32,000 nucleotides of DNA from Pyrobaculum calidifontis JCM 11548 (GCF_000015805.1 NC_009073.1:180001-212000), one strand, 5' to 3'; numbered from the stretch's first letter, positions 192 to 8,873 are shown. Program-made: numbers and translations. The notes: a model not told the origin generated them from the sequence alone.

Positions 192-474
192 GCCCCGTCC
201 AACACACCCCCCATGTTGAACAAACAAAGGCGCACCTCCACTCGGCGCTATCTAAGCGTCTCTGCGCTATGTGTACTTCGTCGCCACCTCAGCCACTTGC
301 TGGACAGTGCTGTGCCGGACTCCAGCCCTACGAGGTACACCCTCCGTGTGGGAAGCGCCGCGGTGCGCTACTTCCCAGCGGCTAAGGTGGCCATAATCTT
401 CGCCAAGACGCCCAGCGAGGCAGAGGCCGTAGCCGCGCTGTGTAAGCCACCATAATTCATCCAGAGTAATCCCA

Positions 475-641
475 TATATTGAATATTTTGCCTACTTGCA
501 CGCAAGTAGGGCGGTGTTGCTATGTCGTTTTTACGCGCCGTCGCCCCCTTCGCCTACTTGCATCGCAAGTAGGCAAGGCGCCTCCCCCACCAAGAAAAAC
601 GGCGACCTACTTGCAAACAAGTAGGCAACTCGTTCAATATA
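475..641. promoter_or_regulatory. array of three CCTACTTG-N4/5-CAAGTAGG palindromes flanked by inverted TATA-like elements (putative operator array / paired promoters)
   Basis: Palindromes are at 491-510, 553-573 and 606-625. The outer inverted repeat is tatattgaa (475-483) / ttcaatata (633-641), each 7 nt from the nearest palindrome. Dyad centres are 62.5 and 52.5 bp apart. Confidence 0.6.
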
Positions 642-663
642 AGGGGGTTGGGCCTGGCGGGCC

Positions 664-852
664 GTGGATCACTCGGCCGACGTGGCTAGGGCTGTGGCGG
701 CCGGCGTCTTGGGGGTGTACATTGTGTGGAGGGCGGCGTCGGTGCTCATGGGCCGGGAGCATCTGGGCGCGGCGGGGGCGAGGTGGTTGAGGAGTTTCTT
801 GCGTGGACCGTGGTCTTCGCCGCGGTTACGCAGTAGTTGCCCAGCGGCTTAG
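664..852 (+). CDS. hypothetical small protein (one hydrophobic segment)
   Basis: GTG 664 lies about 27 nt downstream of the TATA-like ttcaatata (633-641), the leaderless spacing seen elsewhere in the window. The ORF has 62 codons with the hydrophobic stretch VARAVAAGVLGVYIVWRAASVL. It is Ala/Gly/Arg-rich, so it may be a GC-driven ORF. It overlaps the next ORF by 16 nt. Confidence 0.35.
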   Translation: MDHSADVARAVAAGVLGVYIVWRAASVLMGREHLGAAGARWLRSFLRGPWSSPRLRSSCPAA

Positions 853-1208
853 GACGTGGGAAGAAGAACTTGACGGTGGCTAGTCGGGAGCCGCATGTGG
901 AGGCGGCTGAGCGTGAGCTGACTCATAGGCTGTACTCTCTGGGCATCGACGTTGAGCCCTCCGTGTTGGCCGCCTACGTGGAGAGGTACGGCGAAAAGGC
1001 TTTCAACGCCGTGGTGAGAGATGTGGCCAAGGCCCTTGCCGCCTCGTACCGTGTGCCATACGCCGCCGGCGAGGCGGAGGAGTTGATGAAGGAAGTATGT
1101 CCTAGAACAAGCGTCAGCCGCCCTCAGGGCGGCAAAGGAGGCGGCGGCCAGGGGAGAAGACGTGAGAGAAGTCTTAAGGCACATTCTACAACAATAGGCT
1201 ATACGTAA
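837..1208 (+). CDS. hypothetical protein
   Basis: A 123-codon ORF starting at TTG 837 (in-frame alternatives TTG 870, GTG 876, GTG 897). Composition is balanced (LGIDVEPSVLAAYVERYGEKAFNAVVRDVAKAL) with a Gly/Arg-rich tail. The antisense ORF 849..1265 is L/S/R/H-rich and looks like a shadow. No family recognised. Confidence 0.55.
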   Translation: MPSGLGRGKKNLTVASREPHVEAAERELTHRLYSLGIDVEPSVLAAYVERYGEKAFNAVVRDVAKALAASYRVPYAAGEAEELMKEVCPRTSVSRPQGGKGGGGQGRRRERSLKAHSTTIGYT

Positions 1209-1232
1209 GACGGCGTTTTTAAACCGTCGTCT
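1208..1232 (+). terminator. hairpin with T5 run immediately after the stop codon of 837..1208
   Basis: agacggcg (1208-1215) pairs with cgtcgtct (1225-1232), giving 8 bp including one G-U. The 9-nt loop tttttaaac contains a T5 tract, the usual archaeal termination signal. Confidence 0.35.
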
Positions 1233-1335
1233 GCTATATGGCGGCATGTGTCTGCGCTTCAGCAAGGAAGTTGGCTAAATTCTACATGGGGCTGACTGCA
1301 AAGGAAACGTCCTTGCTTCCTTGGGAAAACTCATC

Positions 1336-1408
1336 GGGGGAGGGGATGATGAGAGGGAACTCAGGGGACAGATGCCCGCCACCTGGCTCACTGACCCACC
1401 CCTCCCCC
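1336..1408 (+). ncRNA. C/D box sRNA-like element with long G/C terminal stem
   Basis: C box ATGATGA is at 1346-1352 and D box CTGA at 1391-1394, 38 nt apart. Flanking gggggagggg (1336-1345) and cccctccccc (1399-1408) are perfect reverse complements. Internal C'/D' boxes are weak; only GATG at 1371-1374 is recognisable. No equivalent boxes occur on the minus strand. Confidence 0.5.
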
Positions 1409-1845
1409 TCTTCACCTACAGACAGACGTATTAAAGTTTTCTCTGCCGACTAAACCTACGAGACCCACGGAAAGGGAGTAGGAGTCGGAACGACGCGCCT
1501 AAGCTAAGAACTCCATAGAATCTAGTTATGACAATTTCACCTCTCTTGATGCTTTCGTAGTGTCCGTGGCTGCAGGCATAGTTGTAGCACCTGGCGCAAC
1601 GTCTCACACGTCTAGCCATATCAAGCACGGGGCCTACATCGCCAGCTCCTCTCGGCACCAGTAGCGAACGTTCTACCGGCATTCCACGGGACACGTAGCG
1701 GCGACCTCACGTCGGTGAAGTATATAAGTGCAACCACGGCACGTTCTCTTATGGGCGGGGGCGAATCTGCGACAGCGGCCGTATATTTGCTAAGCGCCGG
1801 GACAGTGGGCAGGTGCAGCGCCTTTGGAGCCGCATCTGACAAGCC

Positions 1846-2508
1846 ATGTCAGTAAACCGGGCTCTTCTCGCCATCCTGATCATTTACCACGTCCTCTTCC
1901 TAGCGTTTCTGCCAGTGGGCAAGCCCCCCTACTCAGAGGCCCTGCTCGGCTACCTTGCGGCGTATCCGCTAATCTACTTGATATACCTAATTGCCGTCTC
2001 GCCGCACGGCAAGGATATAGAAGTGGGGCCCGAGGTGGCGGTGGGGTTCGCTCTCGTGTACCTACTGATCTACGCGCCCCTCCTCGCTATAGGGCGCGGG
2101 TGGGACGAGGAGCCGGGCGCGTGGGCCGAATACATCGTCAGCTTCCTCATAGCCATATTTGGGGCTCTTGTTTACGCCCTCTTAGACCCCAATGTTAAGC
2201 CCCAAGACCGCGCCCGGCTTATCCGCGCCGTCGCCCCCCTCTTGGTGCTACACGCGGTATACGCCCTCGCGGCCCTCTTCGCCGACCGCCCAGTGCTGTG
2301 GTACTTTGCCACATACCCCGCGGCGCTGGCCGCGGCTGCGGCTGGCGGCGGGAGGCTGCCCACGCTGGCCGCAACAGCCATCTACCTAGCCGCATATCTG
2401 CTAGACGCCGTGCCGCTTCTACTCCTGCTAATAGCCGTGCCAGTGGCGTGGCGCCCAGCCGCCGAGCGGGCCGATTTGCATGCGGCAGCTGAGCGGCGCC
2501 AGGGATAG
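1846..2508 (+). CDS. polytopic integral membrane protein, function unknown
   Basis: A 220-aa ORF. The in-frame stop at 1837-1839 makes ATG 1846 the first possible start. It has at least 6 long hydrophobic segments (LAILIIYHVLFLAFL, LAAYPLIYLIYLIAV, FALVYLLIYAPLLAI, IVSFLIAIFGALVYALL, LLVLHAVYALAALF, AIYLAAYLLDAVPLLLLLIAVPV). Confidence 0.75.
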   Translation: MSVNRALLAILIIYHVLFLAFLPVGKPPYSEALLGYLAAYPLIYLIYLIAVSPHGKDIEVGPEVAVGFALVYLLIYAPLLAIGRGWDEEPGAWAEYIVSFLIAIFGALVYALLDPNVKPQDRARLIRAVAPLLVLHAVYALAALFADRPVLWYFATYPAALAAAAAGGGRLPTLAATAIYLAAYLLDAVPLLLLLIAVPVAWRPAAERADLHAAAERRQG

Positions 2509-2798
2509 CTTTTAAGCCTGGGCTTAATCCTGACGTGTTGCGTTGCTTGGAGAGGCTAGGGTGGAGATACTACCTGCTGGACAGCGTCGGGGAAGACGCC
2601 CTTAGACACGCGGTGGGGGTCTAGGAAGTGGGCCGGCCTAATGCTCGACGCGGCAGAGCAACGCGCAGGCGCGCCGGGACACCTGTGGAGATGCCCCAGC
2701 CCGGGACTGCGCGAGACTTGCCGGCGTTGCGTTGTAATATACAATGTTAGATAGTGTCAGATAAGTTTTTAAAGGGGGGACACCGCAACCCCACCTCA

Positions 2799-3965
2799 AT
2801 GGCTGGCCCCCGAGCCGTTCGGTACGTGTTGCTCACCGCGGCCGTACTCCACATGATGGGGTTCAGCGCCGTTGTGCCAGTCACCTCGACCCTAGTCAAG
2901 TCTCTGGGCGGGGACTCCGTGGTACAGGGGCTTTTGGCCTCTGCGTTTACCCTCGCCCAGCTCGTCTCTGCGCCTCTGTGGGGCTGGGCGTCGGACAGGT
3001 TGGGCAGGCGGGTCATAATCGCCGTGGGCCTCGGCCTCGCGGCCATAGGCCACGCCGGCCTCTACCTCGCGAGAGACCTCCCCACAGCCTTCGTCGCCAG
3101 GGCGGTGTCCGGCCTAGGCGGAGGGACACTCCCCGTGATACAGGCGGCAGTCCTGGAGCTCAGCCGGCCGGAAGAGAGGGCCGCCTCCATGGCGCAGTTC
3201 GGCGCCGCCCTTGGCATAGGCTTCGTCGCCGGGCCGCTCCTGGGAGGAGCCCTGTCGATACTATCCCCAAGAGACCCATTCCTCGCGGCGGCCGTCCTCT
3301 CCGCCACAGCCGCGCTGTGGTCAACCGCGGTCTATGAGTCTGCTCCCACGGCCGCTCCACAGCCCAAGGCGGAGGGGAGGGGGGCGGGGGTAAACCCGCT
3401 CTACCTCGTGGTATTCTTCCTCTTAAACGCCTCCTACGCCCAGCTCGAGGCCTTCATCTCATTCTACGGGGGAGACCTCGGTCTGCGGCCCATGTACGTC
3501 GGCATCGCCATGAGCCTCGCCAGCGCCGCCGCAGTCACCGCACAGACAGTGGTAAAGAGGCTGGAGAAAGAGCGCCCAACGGACAGCGACATAGCCATAG
3601 GACTGGCAGTCATGGCCGCGGGGCTAGCCACCGCGGCAGTTCCAACCCCCTACACGTACTTCACAGGCGTGGTAGTGTCCGCCGCCGGGCAAGTAATCGC
3701 CACAGCCTTCATCTCCAAGGCAGTGGCAACAAGCGCCAACAGAGTAGGCCTAGCCTTCGGCGAAATGCAGGCAGCCGGCTCGCTGGGAAGACTCGCGGGG
3801 CCCGTAGACGAGGGCCTCTTATACAAAACCCTCGGCCCCACACCCTCCTTCCTCGAAGGAGCCGGACTAGCGGCAATGGGACTACTCCTCATCATCGGAG
3901 CCACAAGGCTAAACCTCACCCCCACCCTGCCCACCCTAAGCCAAGACAAGAGAGAAAAGGCGTAA
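2799..3965 (+). CDS. major facilitator superfamily (MFS) transporter
   Basis: Twelve-TM-like hydrophobicity and the MFS loop 2-3 motif GWASDRLGRRVIIAVG. I moved the start from GTG 2754 to ATG 2799 because tttttaaa (2766-2773) lies inside the longer ORF and sits about 29 nt upstream of ATG 2799. Confidence 0.85.
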   Translation: MAGPRAVRYVLLTAAVLHMMGFSAVVPVTSTLVKSLGGDSVVQGLLASAFTLAQLVSAPLWGWASDRLGRRVIIAVGLGLAAIGHAGLYLARDLPTAFVARAVSGLGGGTLPVIQAAVLELSRPEERAASMAQFGAALGIGFVAGPLLGGALSILSPRDPFLAAAVLSATAALWSTAVYESAPTAAPQPKAEGRGAGVNPLYLVVFFLLNASYAQLEAFISFYGGDLGLRPMYVGIAMSLASAAAVTAQTVVKRLEKERPTDSDIAIGLAVMAAGLATAAVPTPYTYFTGVVVSAAGQVIATAFISKAVATSANRVGLAFGEMQAAGSLGRLAGPVDEGLLYKTLGPTPSFLEGAGLAAMGLLLIIGATRLNLTPTLPTLSQDKREKA

Positions 3966-4270
3966 CCGCCCGCGGGTCGGCAGGGTGCGCCAAGCCCCAC
4001 ACCTTACACACCCCATGCCACGTCGGTCCCCCTGGCGTCGACAAAGACATGCGGCAGTTGCCAGTGCGAAGCTCGGCCTAGCCTACGCGCCGCACCGCCT
4101 ATGTACTGACGTTAACCTTTTCGCTTTAGGGCTAAACCGCCGCGTGTCCGCCCACGTCGCCGCCTCACAAACAATCTTCATCGAAACGTGAGACCTTTGC
4201 CGGCAGTCGTCTCTACTTAGCCGCCTTCAATAGCCCGCCCCCAGAGCTGCCGCGAGTCTCGCAGATAATG

Positions 4271-4278
4271 TTTTTAAA
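4271..4278 (+). promoter_or_regulatory. TATA box of the tRNA gene
   Basis: tttttaaa is centred about 25 nt upstream of tRNA position 1 (4299). Confidence 0.5.
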
Positions 4279-4298
4279 CGTGGGAGATAGTTAGAACT

Positions 4299-4410
4299 GC
4301 GGCGGTAGCTCAGCCTGGTTGGAGCGCCCTGGGGCCACGCCCCGCGCAAGGCTCATAAAGGGGCAACCCATGCACCCGGGAGGACCCGGGTTCAAATCCC
4401 GGCCGCCGCA
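4299..4410 (+). tRNA. tRNA with anticodon CAU (elongator Met or Ile2-type), two predicted introns
   Basis: Perfect stems: acceptor gcggcgg/ccgccgc, D stem gctc/gagc, T arm ccggg-ttcaaat-cccgg. Removing 4330-4349 (20 nt) and 4359-4375 (17 nt) gives the anticodon arm cccgg-ctcataa-ccggg and a 75-nt cloverleaf with discriminator A. G1:C72 and the anticodon stem argue against an initiator. Confidence 0.88.
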
Positions 4411-4430
4411 TGCTCCCGTTTTACCACTTC

Positions 4431-5168
4431 CTAGCTAACTACAATTTCAAAGCCAGCATTGCCAGGCGGCGGTGGTGACTGGTCTGTAGCTTGTTTCTGC
4501 GGTTGCTTAAGGCCGAAGGCGCCTATTAGAGAAAAGATGTACCCAACCATTATTATAAAATAGCCGACGAATATGACAGAAATCCACGCCCCTATCCATA
4601 TCAACTTAGCCGCCGTATTAAAGGCGCCCACTCCCCCCACCTCACCCAGCCTCCTAAAAGCCCGCCTCAGGAAGTATGACGATACGACGAGAAAGGGCCA
4701 CGACAAAATCAAAAATCCGAGGTAGAGGAGGAGGGGATCCGTCGCAAGTCCCAGCGCCACAGCTATGTCTAATACGCCCTTTTTCTCCAACTCCCTCACC
4801 TCAGCAAATTCCTTGAGAAAGTCGGCGTATATCACATACATGTATATTAATGAGACAATGAAAGAGTAAAGCGAGTTCTTAAAAATATCTCTACTCCTAT
4901 ACCACTCAGCCAAGTAATACACTCCGGCCAACCACACGGCATTAGACAAGAGAAACGTGGCTCCATAGTCATATTCAAACGTAAAATTGCCAATAACGCC
5001 GGCTATGAGACCTGCTATAAAGAGCCACTTTGCATGCTCAAATTTCATACCCACAGACTCCACGGCATCTACAAACGCCAACAATATATCTATTCCGGTA
5101 ATGTCGCCGAGTACAACTGACACAGTAGAACCCCAGCGTACTAAATCGCGAGAAACTGTTATTGACAC
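4431..5168 (-). CDS. polytopic membrane protein (DUF996-like pattern), AT-rich
   Basis: A 245-aa ORF with GTG start and about 6 hydrophobic segments. The duplicated pattern LAGVYYLAEWYRSRDIFKNSLYSFIV and FNTAAKLIWIGAWISVIFVGYFIIMVGYIFSLIGAF resembles archaeal DUF996 membrane proteins from memory (not verified). The C-terminal tail is Pro/Gln-rich. A hand-counted line (4861-4920) is 35% GC. Confidence 0.7.
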   Translation of the reverse strand: MSITVSRDLVRWGSTVSVVLGDITGIDILLAFVDAVESVGMKFEHAKWLFIAGLIAGVIGNFTFEYDYGATFLLSNAVWLAGVYYLAEWYRSRDIFKNSLYSFIVSLIYMYVIYADFLKEFAEVRELEKKGVLDIAVALGLATDPLLLYLGFLILSWPFLVVSSYFLRRAFRRLGEVGGVGAFNTAAKLIWIGAWISVIFVGYFIIMVGYIFSLIGAFGLKQPQKQATDQSPPPPGNAGFEIVVS

Positions 5169-5453
5169 TTAAATGAGCCAGCGCGAGATTCCTTTCTCGC
5201 CTATTGGTGTTCCACGACGTAATCTAATGCCTGTCTAAGGGAGACTTCAAGACCCCCGACTAGGCGCGATGAGCGTTTCTTCGCCGTCATCCTCAATCCC
5301 ATCCAGCACCGCGCCCCGGCCTTTCAACGTGCACCAAGCCCACGCCAGGCCCTCCACGGCATCGTTACCAGAGTGCTGAAAGCCACGTCAGCAAGGTTCT
5401 AGGCTAAGGGCGACCGTGGCCTAGACTAGACAAGAGCCGGGAGGTTTTATACC

Positions 5454-8400
5454 CTAGACTTGGGAGTAATAAAGCTTATACGCCGCCTTAAGCACTTCGT
5501 CGGTAATGCAGTTGCCTACGGTCGTTTCCTCCAGCGCCTTGGCCAATTCACGGAACAAGCGGCCGTGGAGACCATTACTCGATGAACCATGCCTAGACGT
5601 CACCTTCGCCAGGTTAAGACCCCACTCCTCGCCTCTCTCACAATAGGCCAGGCCAACTAGGGCAGATAAGAAGAGCTTCCCAGAATCTAACGTGGTCCAA
5701 GTCAACGCCTTTTCTGCCTCTTGGCCATACTTCTCTTCAATAGACCTCGTGGCGGCTTCGGCATCGCCTTCGGCAAATAGGCCGGCATCAACCGCCTCGT
5801 ACAACACTTCGACAAACTTTGGCAGATTAGCCCTGGCCCACTCGGGGAGGTACTCCACGGCCTTTCCCAAATACCTTCCATCTAAGAGGGAGAGGACGCC
5901 GTAGGTGAGGGCCGATGCGTCGAGGTCGCGCTCTAACGCCCACCCCCACTCCTCCAACACCTTCTTTACGTCGCTGAGGCGGCCCACAGAGGCCAGGGCC
6001 ACTACATAGTGGCCAAGCGCGTTGGCAATCGCCTCTACGCCAAGACTGTTAACGTCTTGCAACGCCCTCAGCCATGCCCTTTCAAACTCTTCAACGGGAG
6101 GGGCACCCTCTTTAACAGCCTTTAGCCTCGCCAACAGACTACACGATGCGACTTCATAGTATACTTCCCCAGACTCCATAGCCAGTTCGTATGACAATTT
6201 TGCATGTTTTGCGGCTTTCTCTAAGTCGTCAGCGACCATATAAGCGAAGGCCACGTGATAGTGGACATATGCGCTGAGACCACTAAGCTCCTTCCTCAGG
6301 TCTGGCCTTATTTGCATCACCCTCAGATACTCCCACAACTTCTCCTCAGTTGACACTCTGTCTTCAGTGTAGGATCGCTTAAGCTCTTCCAACGCTCCCA
6401 CCGCTTTGTCTGCAAATTTCTCCGCTTTGCTTACTTCGTCAAATAGAGAATACCAATAGGCAAGCCGCGGATGTAAAAGCGCTACGGCATACGCTTTTTC
6501 AACATCGTTAAGTCGTGATACAAACTCCTCCACGCGTTTAGCCAGTTCTTTAAACGTCTCCCATGGCTCTACCTGCGTGTTCAACGACCCAGCGGCAACA
6601 ATAAGTCCCACTGGCGAGACAAGTGCGTAGAGGAGCGTGTTGAGGAGCCACAACTTGGCAACGTTGGAACCTGCGTTGTATAATGCGGCAAAGCGTTGAG
6701 CCAGAGGCGCTTGACTGTCTTTTGCAATCGTGAAAAAGAATAGCAGACCAACAGGCGAGCTTCTGGCAACGTTGTGAGTCGCCATAGCTAGCCAGTCGGC
6801 AAGCCGCGAAGACGCCCTCCCACTTTCGACTCTGCGCCAAGCCTCAGCGAGCGGCGGCTCTACACCGTGTAAAAGTTGTGTTGAGACGCTTGCAAATCTT
6901 CCAAATACATAATCGAGCAGTCTTACGACATTCTCTAGCTCCTCGTCTGTGGCGTTACTCCAGTCGCCAGTTGCCGCAATACCCACGGCTCGCCAAAGGT
7001 CTACATGAGTATAGAAACCTCTTTCCTCAACCTCCTTTGCGATTACCACGGCCCTCTTGGCCAGTTTCCTACTCCCCTCCTTCAGATTAAAGAAAAGGTA
7101 TGGCCCCACAGCGTTGGTTCTTTCATCGCCAACAAAGAACCAATCTTCCAGTGGCTTCAGCAAGCGGCTCCAGTCTGGCAATACCGCCAGTCCATATAGT
7201 GCCGACAAGATGTCCAACTCGTCTACGACGCTTTCGACTATCTCAATGCCCCAGGGCGTCTTAGTCTCATATCTTATCTTCCAGCGCCCGTCCTCGGCTA
7301 CACCGTTGAAGGCTTGTAGGAAGTTGTCGATGAGGTAGTCTATTTGCCGCATGCCAGCGGGCCCAGGGGCTTTGAACTTTTCTGCGATAACCTTGGCGTA
7401 CTCCACTGCCATCTCCTCTATTCCGCTGTACCTCCTCCGCGGGACCCCTACAAGTGCCTCCGCACAAATCTCCACGAGGCGGCACGGCCCCTCCGCGCTA
7501 CCCTGGCACAGCTCGTCGTCTCCAACGCCGAACCGCCTATAGACGGCGCCGTGGGCCACCTTTCGTATTGTCTCGTAGAGAGTGCCGTGTAGCGGCTGAG
7601 AAAACCACAGCACTACCGCCTCCTCTGGCTCTTTGCCGAATACCCTTATGACGGCCTTTGCCAGCTTGGGTGGGTGTGGGCCAAAGAGGCCGGTGGCGAG
7701 GATTAGGGGCGCAACTTGCCTGGCAGTTGCCTCATCGCCTCCCAACACCACGTGCCAGAGGTAGGCGAGCGCCAGAGAGTAGACGTCCAGCCTCTTCACC
7801 GCCTCTGCCACCTTCGCCGGGTCTCTCCACTCCTCGTAAAGCGCTCTTGCCAAGGCGGCGGCAACGGCGTAGAACTCGCCCCTGTACCGCTCAAGGACGG
7901 CCTCAGCCACGGCGTCGGGCACGCCCCTCAAAATCCCCCTCACAAGGGCCTCGGCCTCGCCGCCCATACAAACCGCCTCAGCGCCCACGAGGTTGGCCAC
8001 GTCCTCGTAGGCCCGGTAGTCCTCCTCAGTGAGAACCACTACAGTGGGCACTCTGAGGAGGGCCGCGTCGTGTAGAAAGTCGGCAAGGGGCTTGGCATGG
8101 GCCATGGCGCTGTACATCACATCTATGCCCTCACCACGTCTCCTGTATCCCCCGACCTCAAGTGTGTCGTAGTAGAGGACTGGGACAAAGGGCCCATCCC
8201 GTAGCCGCGCAGCCGCCCTCAGGGCCTCTTTCCAGTCCTCGCCCACTCGCACCACTACCACCGCTCTGTCCGGTTGGGCTTTCGCGAAGTCGTATATGGC
8301 CTTGAGGGCTACTGTGCTCTTCCCAACGCCCCTCGGCCCACACACCACTACGACGCGGCCGCTGGAGAGGGCCCGGCGCACTTCGTCCTCAACCCCCACC

Positions 8401-8873
8401 TCCACGTACTCCACAGGTCCGAAGGGACTATTCACGAGGAGGCGGCCGCCCTCCTCCACGAACACTTGCCCAAGGTCGAGGAGGTGGGGGCTAAGCCGCC
8501 TCAACAGTTCGAGGCCCTCCCCGAGCCGTTTCAATCTCTCCTCCAGCTTGGCGAGGTCTACCTCGGGCAGTGCGGCCAAGTTTTTGACGAGTGTCCTAAG
8601 CCACTCCTCGCTTACCCCGAGCTTCTCCGCCGCCCTCTTGACCTCCTCGTCGCACCGCCCTGTGCTCTTCGCGGCCTTTATGAGCTCCACGAGCTCACCC
8701 GCGAGACCGGGCCTGCTTAGGTCAGCCACAAGCTCCGCGACCTCCGCGAGGGAAGAGACAAACGGCAAGGCCCCCGCCAGAAGCTTGACAACCTTAAAAA
8801 AGCGATCCCCTCTCTCCGTCAACAGCCGGCCAAGAGGCCCCGCCGCCAGCCTCTCATAAAACTCACAGGACAT
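5454..8873 (-). CDS. large P-loop NTPase with N-terminal helical domain and C-terminal TPR-like helical repeats (STAND-like architecture)
   Basis: An uninterrupted 1139-aa ORF. Walker A GPRGVGKST is encoded at 8313-8339 (aa 179-187). Candidate Walker B is VLYYD (aa 233-236) or VVVLTEED (aa 278-285). About 170 aa of helical, Leu/Glu-rich sequence precede the P-loop. About 800 aa of helical-repeat-like sequence follow (e.g. VHYHVAFAYMVADDLEKAAKHAKLSYELAMESGEVYYEVASCSLLARL). TATA-like cttttaaa (complement of 8895-8902) is about 25 nt upstream of ATG 8873. Confidence 0.85.
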   Translation of the reverse strand: MSCEFYERLAAGPLGRLLTERGDRFFKVVKLLAGALPFVSSLAEVAELVADLSRPGLAGELVELIKAAKSTGRCDEEVKRAAEKLGVSEEWLRTLVKNLAALPEVDLAKLEERLKRLGEGLELLRRLSPHLLDLGQVFVEEGGRLLVNSPFGPVEYVEVGVEDEVRRALSSGRVVVVCGPRGVGKSTVALKAIYDFAKAQPDRAVVVVRVGEDWKEALRAAARLRDGPFVPVLYYDTLEVGGYRRRGEGIDVMYSAMAHAKPLADFLHDAALLRVPTVVVLTEEDYRAYEDVANLVGAEAVCMGGEAEALVRGILRGVPDAVAEAVLERYRGEFYAVAAALARALYEEWRDPAKVAEAVKRLDVYSLALAYLWHVVLGGDEATARQVAPLILATGLFGPHPPKLAKAVIRVFGKEPEEAVVLWFSQPLHGTLYETIRKVAHGAVYRRFGVGDDELCQGSAEGPCRLVEICAEALVGVPRRRYSGIEEMAVEYAKVIAEKFKAPGPAGMRQIDYLIDNFLQAFNGVAEDGRWKIRYETKTPWGIEIVESVVDELDILSALYGLAVLPDWSRLLKPLEDWFFVGDERTNAVGPYLFFNLKEGSRKLAKRAVVIAKEVEERGFYTHVDLWRAVGIAATGDWSNATDEELENVVRLLDYVFGRFASVSTQLLHGVEPPLAEAWRRVESGRASSRLADWLAMATHNVARSSPVGLLFFFTIAKDSQAPLAQRFAALYNAGSNVAKLWLLNTLLYALVSPVGLIVAAGSLNTQVEPWETFKELAKRVEEFVSRLNDVEKAYAVALLHPRLAYWYSLFDEVSKAEKFADKAVGALEELKRSYTEDRVSTEEKLWEYLRVMQIRPDLRKELSGLSAYVHYHVAFAYMVADDLEKAAKHAKLSYELAMESGEVYYEVASCSLLARLKAVKEGAPPVEEFERAWLRALQDVNSLGVEAIANALGHYVVALASVGRLSDVKKVLEEWGWALERDLDASALTYGVLSLLDGRYLGKAVEYLPEWARANLPKFVEVLYEAVDAGLFAEGDAEAATRSIEEKYGQEAEKALTWTTLDSGKLFLSALVGLAYCERGEEWGLNLAKVTSRHGSSSNGLHGRLFRELAKALEETTVGNCITDEVLKAAYKLYYSQV

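Follow-up and report, generated by a model that had tools for sequence, protein, structure and literature searches.

An array of three phased palindromes between inverted TATA-like modules in an accessory cassette of Pyrobaculum calidifontis

The palindrome array and its flanking modules

Within a 32,000-nucleotide stretch of the genome of Pyrobaculum calidifontis JCM 11548 (NC_009073.1:180001-212000; hereafter the window, with positions counted from its first letter), a 167-bp locus at positions 475–641 carries three palindromes, or dyads, bracketed by inverted TATA-like elements. By direct sequence check, dyad 1 is CCTACTTGCACGCAAGTAGG at 491–510 (CCTACTTG-CACG-CAAGTAGG) and dyad 3 is CCTACTTGCAAACAAGTAGG at 606–625 (CCTACTTG-CAAA-CAAGTAGG). 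Dyad 2, GCCTACTTGCATCGCAAGTAGGC at 552–574 (GCCTACTTGC-ATC-GCAAGTAGGC), has 10-bp arms and is the same in the homologous loci L067 and L110. Spacer 1 (511–551; 88% identical to that of L067) contains a T5 tract at 529–533 and the conserved block GCGCCGTCGCCCCCTTCG, and spacer 2 (575–605; 93.5% identical to that of L067) contains an A5 tract at 595–599 and the conserved block GAAAAACGGCG. No strand is assigned to either the dyads or the spacers. The coordinates and sequences of the palindromes and flanking elements given in a preliminary description, made from the DNA alone, were exact on recheck.

The half-site CCTACTTG is present in six copies within 135 bp, all at the array, and is found nowhere else in the 32 kb. 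The preliminary description had counted the same six copies of the 8-nt half-site, and this count was confirmed as exceptional, since dinucleotide shuffles gave 1.23 ± 1.2 copies and none of 100 shuffles reached six. A census of perfect palindromes (arms of at least 8 bp, loops of at most 6 nt) yielded nine distinct examples in the window, three of which are the array dyads, with identical arms, and a search of the window for the palindrome 20-mer with three mismatches allowed found nothing comparable outside the array. A first clustering test of the palindromes was confounded by nested matches and is not used as a statistic.

The distances between dyad centres, 62.5 and 52.5 bp, amount to about six and five helical turns, which bears out the earlier claim that all three dyads lie on a common face of the helix. 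The corresponding distances are 62.5 and about 64.5 bp in L156, and 61.5–64.5 bp in the five-dyad arrays described below; this regularity could also stem from a common origin through unit duplication. The inverted symmetry of the locus exceeds that first described, with arms at 471–518 and 598–645 that are 77% complementary over 48 nt. The equivalent arms are 95% complementary over 37 nt in the diverged homologue L067, and they extend over at least 36 nt in array 3 of L107.

The bracketing elements, tatattgaa (475–483) and ttcaatata (633–641), form the 9-bp inverted repeat previously noted, with 7 nt between each element and the nearest dyad. The right promoter module (P_M, GGCAACTCGTTCAATATAAGGGGG; 626–645, plus strand) has a TATA-like sequence at 633–642, about 26 nt before a GTG start codon at 664. 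P_M is 100% identical in L067, and close variants are found at equal distance before the same gene, encoding a small membrane protein, in L110 and L156. The left promoter module (P_S; 466–490, minus strand) has a leftward TATA-like sequence at 474–483 and is a degenerate inverted copy of P_M, homologous to the module GGCAACTYGTTCAATWTAW, which precedes start codons in L067, L107, L110 and L156; a different promoter occupies this position in L108. The two flanks form a perfect 21-nt inverted repeat in L067, and in L107 an inverted pair of the module flanks a different three-dyad array, with ATG...ATG openings directly on each side. The TATA-like promoter pair proposed earlier therefore consists of inverted copies of one module that lie about 26 nt before start codons in homologous loci and, given the openings on both sides in L107, the promoters face outward. 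The spacing of about 26 nt between the right module and the start codon fits the leaderless promoter geometry described for Pyrobaculum, and PMC2151090 mentions leaderless transcripts.

No ORF (open reading frame) is conserved through the array, and in L156 the frame meets a stop codon. A CRISPR array was excluded: the repeats are self-palindromic and mirror-arranged, and it is the spacers that are conserved between loci and the repeats that vary.

Homologous arrays, flanking genes and genomic setting

Relatives of the locus were identified through a palindrome scan of metagenomes (L067) and look-ups of the flanking proteins (L109, L110, L107, L108, L156 and L157). L109 and L110 are syntenic with the window, and L107, L108, L156 and L157 have other contexts. 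The metagenome scan returned 61 matches, 60 of which were isolated chance palindromes and one a true relative with the cassette (L067). A search of related genomes for the palindrome, suggested earlier as a check, gave no archaeal match among 185,579 species representatives, a collection from which the locus of the window itself was not returned and seems to be masked or absent. We infer, without certainty given this apparent masking, that the P. calidifontis genome holds no further copies.

In the homologous three-dyad arrays (window, L110, L067, L156 and L107), the flanks and spacers align, and the dyads at three fixed positions differ. The aligned arrays of L107 and L156 occupy positions 4130–4345 and 385–600 of their respective loci. 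The motifs common to the aligned arrays include GCGCCGTC..CCCCTT, in the alignable 3' part of spacer 1, and GAAAAACGGCG, which recurs in spacer 2 of the array variants; the 5' part of spacer 1, including the T5 tract, is not alignable. The window-type dyads have the form CCTACTTG-N4-CAAGTAGG, the outer dyads of L156 the form CCTACCTA-N4-TAGGTAGG, and the outer dyads of L107 are approximately of the CCCATCTG type; L156 and L107 have a central dyad of the form CCATCTGTG-A-CACAGAT(T)GG. Thus, within each array, the outer dyads have one common half-site (CCTACTTG, CCTACCTA or approximately CCCATCTG), which extends to all three dyads in the window. The centres vary while the arms remain fixed: CACG or TTCG in dyad 1 (L110 and L067 compared), CAAA or CAAC in dyad 3 (L110), and GAC, CTC or GTC.

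Across five arrays, 96.9% of the 130 arm cells are complementary, with both sides changed in 11 of the 26 pairs and one side changed in a single pair. Positions slid along the alignment gave only 26–46% pairing, and no shuffle attained the observed values. This comparison is qualitative, as three of the five sequences are close relatives, but dyad symmetry at fixed positions is, judging from the aligned sequences, clearly a conserved property.

A second type of array, with five dyads, is located before the membrane-protein gene in L107 (4655–4965), L108 (1955–2255) and L157 (135–415), and beside ORF-S, the small ORF to the left of the array, in L067 (160–440). Its sites, CCTAC(C)-N9-(G)GTAGG, are arranged in the order A-B-C-B'-A' at intervals of 61.5–64.5 bp, mostly 63.5 bp (about six turns). 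The mirroring is limited to the dyads, the spacers being unique in sequence; sites A and B have imperfect arms and centres that are not palindromic. The five-dyad and window-type sites have a common core, CCTAC-N10/11-GTAGG.

In the comparison with L067, the most diverged copy, the core at 522–645 is 97.6% identical, as against 77.7% for ORF-S and 79.8% for the membrane-protein gene (Fisher p = 4e-8), which indicates either stronger purifying selection on the core than on its neighbours or recent exchange. The similarity to L110 was dropped as evidence of selection, because these strains are close: the SDR gene is itself 92–98% identical, and it is a neighbouring gene for a protein of 599/622 aa that is the outlier. 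Taken together, these observations indicate that the array is a real, non-random and conserved non-coding feature under selection.

Two small genes flank the array; the preliminary description missed the left one, a conserved small ORF with its end at 455, and did not notice that the ORF at 664 is degenerate. The left gene, ORF-S (243–455, plus strand), ends 20 nt before the left TATA-like element and is a remnant in the window, where its N-terminal part is frameshifted. It is kept in L067, L107, L108, L110 and L156, and the called homologues (P0132–P0136) are 60–100 aa when intact. The AlphaFold2 (AF2) model of an intact homologue (pLDDT 79, pTM 0.65) has a beta-alpha-beta3-alpha arrangement, and its best matches in the PDB were the N-domains of RNase HIII and OGG1 and TATA-binding proteins (TBPs). 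Matches in a viral library included an African swine fever virus (ASFV) B263R-like protein, the N-domain of RnlA and viral TBPs. All of these are TBP-like folds, with E-values of only 0.05–0.5 and query-normalised TM-scores of about 0.5, and no sequence-level match backs the assignment. ORF-S is therefore predicted, on weak-scoring fold matches to a model, to be a single TBP-like domain. A guess that ORF-S and gene X of L107 were RelE/ParE-like toxins was dropped, as no Pfam support was obtained even at E < 10.

Directly downstream of the left module, on the minus strand, positions 368–460 hold a candidate 30-aa ORF (MNYGGLHSAATASASLGVLAKIMATLAAGK) or an antisense transcript region. An ATG lies just past the module in the window, L067 and L108, and an equivalent ATG is present in L107. 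As read from the sequence, the transcript of the left promoter may be antisense to the 3' half of ORF-S, with the candidate ORF inside it. Because the third codon positions of the 30-aa ORF and ORF-S coincide on opposite strands, variation by codon position separates neither of the two.

The GTG ORF reported earlier at 664 is present and corresponds to a gene for a small membrane protein (664–852, plus strand; WP_193322780.1, 62 aa, exact), with homologues P0113–P0120. Intact members of this family have 69–82 aa and two hydrophobic helices, and the AF2 model is helical, with low confidence. Relative to P0113, the window copy shifts frame after codon 38 and has lost about 100 nt at its 3' end, and the L110 copy carries a nonsense codon. 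The possibility that this ORF encodes the conjugation-type pilin TedC was excluded, as TedC is Pcal_0765. After the membrane-gene remnant, an ORF of 103 aa (897–1208), helical and with a Gly/Arg-rich tail, matches no family; it occurs in the window and in L109, has been deleted from L110 and is missing in L067.

The cassette lies in a strain-variable segment of about 1 kb (233–1214, no strand), delimited by blastn comparison of the window with L007. This closest orthologous locus (84% protein identity, same SDR synteny) has an unrelated 2.2 kb instead, without dyads; the array is therefore accessory DNA, not a conserved chromosomal control region. Contigs identical to the window occur in several hot-spring metagenomes. 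The left neighbour of the array is ABO07624.1/WP_011848881, and an ORF of 220 aa at 1846–2508 matches ABO07626.1 exactly. The left neighbour gene, encoding the 599/622-aa protein, is on the minus strand, starts at about 158–227 and runs off the left end of the window (L001 1043–2911). Its family has no known domain; the members seen come solely from Pyrobaculum and from hot-spring metagenome contigs, and P. calidifontis has more than one copy. The gene is hypervariable, with 61–86% nucleotide identity between strains, as compared with 92–98% for the adjacent SDR gene.

At least three contexts were observed for the cassette: beside the 599/622-aa gene (window, L109 and L110), in an island of L107, and elsewhere (L067, L108 and L156). 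The L107 island is an insertion of about 6.1 kb (694–6785) that splits an alcohol dehydrogenase gene, with ADH_N and ADH_zinc_N fragments on either side; its cargo comprises genes for several proteins that are membrane-bound or secreted, the cassette, which has two arrays, and a TnpB gene at the right end. TnpB (IS605 OrfB / Cas12f-like) was located at 1761–2394 in L067, 5622–6767 in L107, 3031–4173 in L108 and 1083–2225 in L157. In these four independent contigs it begins 370–570 bp past the membrane-protein gene, with a conserved non-coding stretch between them, and no TnpB was found near the array in the window, L109 or L110. The array was excluded as the end of an IS200/IS605 transposon, as the membrane-protein gene separates it from TnpB.

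Another conserved non-coding block lies at 1215–1458 (core 1334–1406), with the structure GGGGAGGGG-ATGATGA (C box) ... CTGA (D box)-CCCACCCCTCCCCC. Its identity to L007 3541–3782 is 86%, a second, inverted partial copy lies at L007 4378–4426, and the block is also present in L109, L110 and L107 (7401–7489); its scores are below the Rfam thresholds. An element of about 15 copies, with C and D boxes and inverted-repeat flanks, has been described in P. calidifontis as a highly transcribed, MITE-like (miniature inverted-repeat transposable element) C/D box small RNA (sRNA) (Lui et al. 2018, PMC6009581). The block at 1334–1406 is probably one of these copies, which fits a region of genomic instability. 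Further into the window, a 112-nt tRNA, presumably intron-containing, was identified at 4299–4410 (Rfam, 44.7 bits; missed by ARAGORN). An ORF of 1139 aa at 5454–8873 (minus strand) adjoins this tRNA and a DUF996 gene; it has a P-loop/STAND-like nucleoside triphosphatase (NTPase) signature, and its matches to defence systems are weak and all below threshold.

Interpretation of the array

Our tentative reading, which we hold with slightly less than even confidence, is that the array consists of phased sites for a dimeric sequence-specific DNA-binding protein beside two divergent promoters. Protein binding, its cooperativity and the sign of regulation are features that we infer. The locus would be the cis-acting core of a small accessory cassette in P. 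calidifontis-type Pyrobaculum, formed by two outward-facing copies of one archaeal module comprising a transcription factor B (TFB) recognition element (BRE) and a TATA box. The right module would drive the membrane-protein gene at 664, and the left module a short transcript antisense to ORF-S. A dimeric protein would occupy the three dyads on one face of the helix, six and five turns apart, and the three dimers, through cooperative contacts, would bend or loop about 135 bp of DNA. Since the outer dyads end 7 nt from the TATA-like sequences, next to the expected BRE, their occupancy would govern the access of TFB and TBP at both promoters.

We favour such operators because of the features that a dimeric DNA reader would impose, namely identical outer arms, free centres, whole-turn spacing, dyads near the promoters at the expected BRE, and relatives unfit as hairpins. 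A common half-site in the outer dyads is expected if a common protein reads them, and independent hairpins need not show it; the sites of the five-dyad arrays are poor hairpins and plausible two-major-groove sites. The operator array put forward in the preliminary description is upheld in part, in that dyad symmetry is selected and the core is better kept than the ORFs, but the closest orthologous locus lacks the cassette altogether. As stated there, no regulator was found beside the array: no neighbour has a helix-turn-helix (HTH), ribbon-helix-helix (RHH), AbrB or Lrp domain, and the binding protein is probably encoded outside the cassette.

Several points weigh against this interpretation. 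No classical regulator gene is a constant neighbour of the array. From contig to contig, the array before this same pair of genes differs in dyad sequence, an unusual property for a simple operator, and the spacers are as well conserved as the dyads, beyond what operators need. The exact palindrome was found in no other archaeal representative, which would leave a dedicated factor with very few sites to act on. The similarity to L110 may reflect recent exchange instead of selection. Finally, in the window and in L110 the array has stayed intact, but each of its two flanking genes is disrupted. The array may thus have no control role here now and, because both flanking genes are frameshifted in P. 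calidifontis, it may be a recently orphaned control region.

The survival of the array amid decaying genes is also what would be expected if the dyads were recombination substrates, or if they formed the ends of a foldback, MITE-like module reshuffled by inversion and exchange, as selfish or structural DNA. We consider this explanation unlikely. The cassette has at least three genomic contexts, and L067 and L156 carry one block, made up of the left module, ORF-S, a spacer and the five-dyad array, in the opposite orientation to that in L107, L108 and L157. L156 appears hybrid-like, as its central dyad is of a different type from its outer dyads. Long inverted repeats (37–55 nt) flank the array, TnpB lies 370–570 bp downstream in L067, L107, L108 and L157, and the MITE-like C/D sRNA element is 700 bp away in a region known as unstable. 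However, although the inverted repeats surround a short non-coding core, as in foldback elements, dispersed copies were not found: no further palindrome copy was detected in the window or in the genome representatives, where the locus itself is apparently masked. The repeat ends have no target-site duplication, and the loci differ by larger replacements, with no clean empty site. Unlike an independent MITE, the array is always accompanied by the same two small genes, whose promoter region it replaces exactly. No recombinase gene is adjacent, and the dyad centres, of 2–5 nt and variable length, would not be expected to serve as the core sites typical of tyrosine or serine recombinases.

The combination of a constant architecture with an element-specific repeat sequence is typical of plasmid iterons and centromeres. 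The array might accordingly be a relic cis site, iteron origin or centromere-like, of an integrated extrachromosomal element whose initiator or partition adaptor has since been lost. The oppositely oriented T5 and A5 tracts of the spacers and the accessory, decaying state of the cassette are consistent with such a relic, as is the proposed descent of archaeal chromosomal origins from captured elements (Robinson and Bell 2007). We nevertheless judge it improbable. No orc1/cdc6, Rep, ParA/ParB/AspA-like or comparable gene is present in any homologous locus, and no similarity was found to plasmid or virus records or to viral contigs. A virus or plasmid origin of the DNA was likewise not supported, with no DNA or protein match in phage and plasmid records and only single chance matches in the viral-contig scans; searches with PHROGs and PADLOC gave nothing.

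The chromosomal position also bears on origin function. From accession order rather than alignment, we estimate that the locus lies near Pcal_0197, at about 190 kb (map anchors: TedC, Pcal_0765 = WP_011849449, and Pcal_0541 at 514 kb). This is far from the four origins reported for P. calidifontis at about 0.3, 514, 951 and 1688 kb, in agreement with the earlier disfavouring of an origin, and counts against a relic site as well. Pfam and NCBIfam scans of the neighbouring ORFs revealed no orc1/cdc6 or whiP initiator, in the window or in the homologous loci. There is no AT-rich unwinding element, as the GC content is 0.50–0.60 across 481–630 and only the flanking TATA modules are AT-rich. A chromosomal replication origin was therefore rejected.

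The strong covariation of the arms raises the question of whether the palindromes form functional hairpins, in RNA or in single-stranded DNA, that serve as bidirectional terminators or insulators for transcripts arriving from ORF-S and from the right, or that belong to a structured small RNA. The arms are perfect over 8–10 bp, longer than the common CCTAC core, and folding gives z-scores of -5 and -7. On the minus strand, dyad 3 and the T5 after it score as terminator-like, and the ORF-S transcript must end near or inside the array. Nevertheless, only one G-U pair is present among the 130 arm cells and one-sided changes are almost absent, unlike in typical RNA helices. The outer stems of each array have one and the same sequence, as do all three in the window, and hairpins have no need of this; the five-dyad relative has imperfect arms of 5–6 bp around centres of 8–9 nt. 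At the growth temperature of 90 °C, Pal1 and Pal3 are predicted to be unfolded and Pal2 to reach only -1.8 kcal/mol (extrapolated parameters). The two promoter modules are directed outward from the array. Against Rfam, the gathering scan of the window gave the tRNA only, and an E-value scan of 1–2000 placed only sub-threshold miRNA-type noise over the palindromes, with no family match even at E < 5. The array is not a member of a described RNA family, and we give hairpins a slim chance of being its function.

ORF-S is a weak candidate for the binding protein, because its sequence is nearly constant across arrays that differ in their dyads. A new Pyrobaculum module in which ORF-S, as a free-standing protein of a single TBP-like domain, forms a symmetric homodimer that reads symmetric promoter/dyad DNA, a living analogue of the hypothetical homodimeric TBP ancestor in a cassette where dyads are swapped like immunity specificities and segments invert, is highly improbable. 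The two libraries agree on the fold, though with weak scores, and only adjacency connects the protein with the DNA. The remaining probability falls to an array with no present function or to something else that we have not considered.

Comparison with known systems

Few multi-site control regions have been characterised in Crenarchaeota and, to our knowledge, none in Thermoproteales, a group that, as far as we know, is not yet genetically manipulable. The 167-bp locus is a compact natural test fragment. The comparison of its relatives separates constrained bases (dyad arms, spacing and spacers) from free ones (dyad centres), and the natural variants with swapped dyads provide built-in specificity controls in pull-down or footprinting work. 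A binding protein, if found, would define a new regulator-site pair and might explain the silencing or switching of a small Pyrobaculum cassette. If the dyads were instead recombination sites, they would show that a hyperthermophile shuffles its DNA locally in a new way. So far, reports of free-standing TBP-domain proteins come only from Euryarchaea (PMC3597702), and a TBP-fold-like ORF-S, if the prediction is true, would carry them to Crenarchaeota.

With respect to replication and partition sites, the array resembles the tandem 43-bp units of F sopC, with one dyad each, and R1 parC, which flanks a promoter, in its regular period and single dyad per unit. Like plasmid centromeres and iterons in general, it has an element-specific repeat sequence and a promoter association. 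However, it is accompanied by no partition or replication gene, its units are mirror-arranged and its spacers are of unique sequence. Origin recognition boxes (ORB and mini-ORB) at oriC are also short inverted dyad elements in intergenic regions, but the array lies off the mapped origins, with neither an Orc1/Cdc6 neighbour nor an AT-rich unwinding element. The C/D box sRNA element (PMC6009581) is found in the same genome, in the same unstable and unannotated kind of region, and has inverted-repeat flanks, whereas the dyad array lacks C and D boxes and has no other copy in the representative genomes.

The tripartite right operator (OR) of lambdoid phages also resembles the array in design, with dyads between divergent promoters, an architecture that is kept while the site sequence varies, and mosaic recombination of modules. 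It differs in being bacterial, in the spacing of its operators (about 23 bp, compared with 52–63 bp here) and in its flanking repressor genes; here the flanking genes encode a membrane protein and a TBP-fold-like ORF, and no link to a virus or plasmid was found.

The control region of Ss-LrpB in Sulfolobus solfataricus reportedly contains three regularly spaced semi-palindromic boxes that are bound cooperatively. Both are crenarchaeal intergenic regions in which three dyad boxes at helical-turn spacing lie by a BRE/TATA promoter and, by analogy, cooperative binding and DNA wrapping would be expected in both. The box sequence is different, and the spacing there is said to be about four turns, as opposed to five to six here. 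The regulator gene is adjacent in S. solfataricus, whereas no Lrp or HTH gene accompanies the present array, which is placed between two inverted promoter copies in a mobile cassette and has dyads that are swapped between copies. As in multi-operator regions, several dyads of one consensus lie by promoters at whole-turn spacing. The locus is best filed as a multi-dyad control array of a narrow lineage, with an unusual modular family structure and a TBP-fold-like neighbour.

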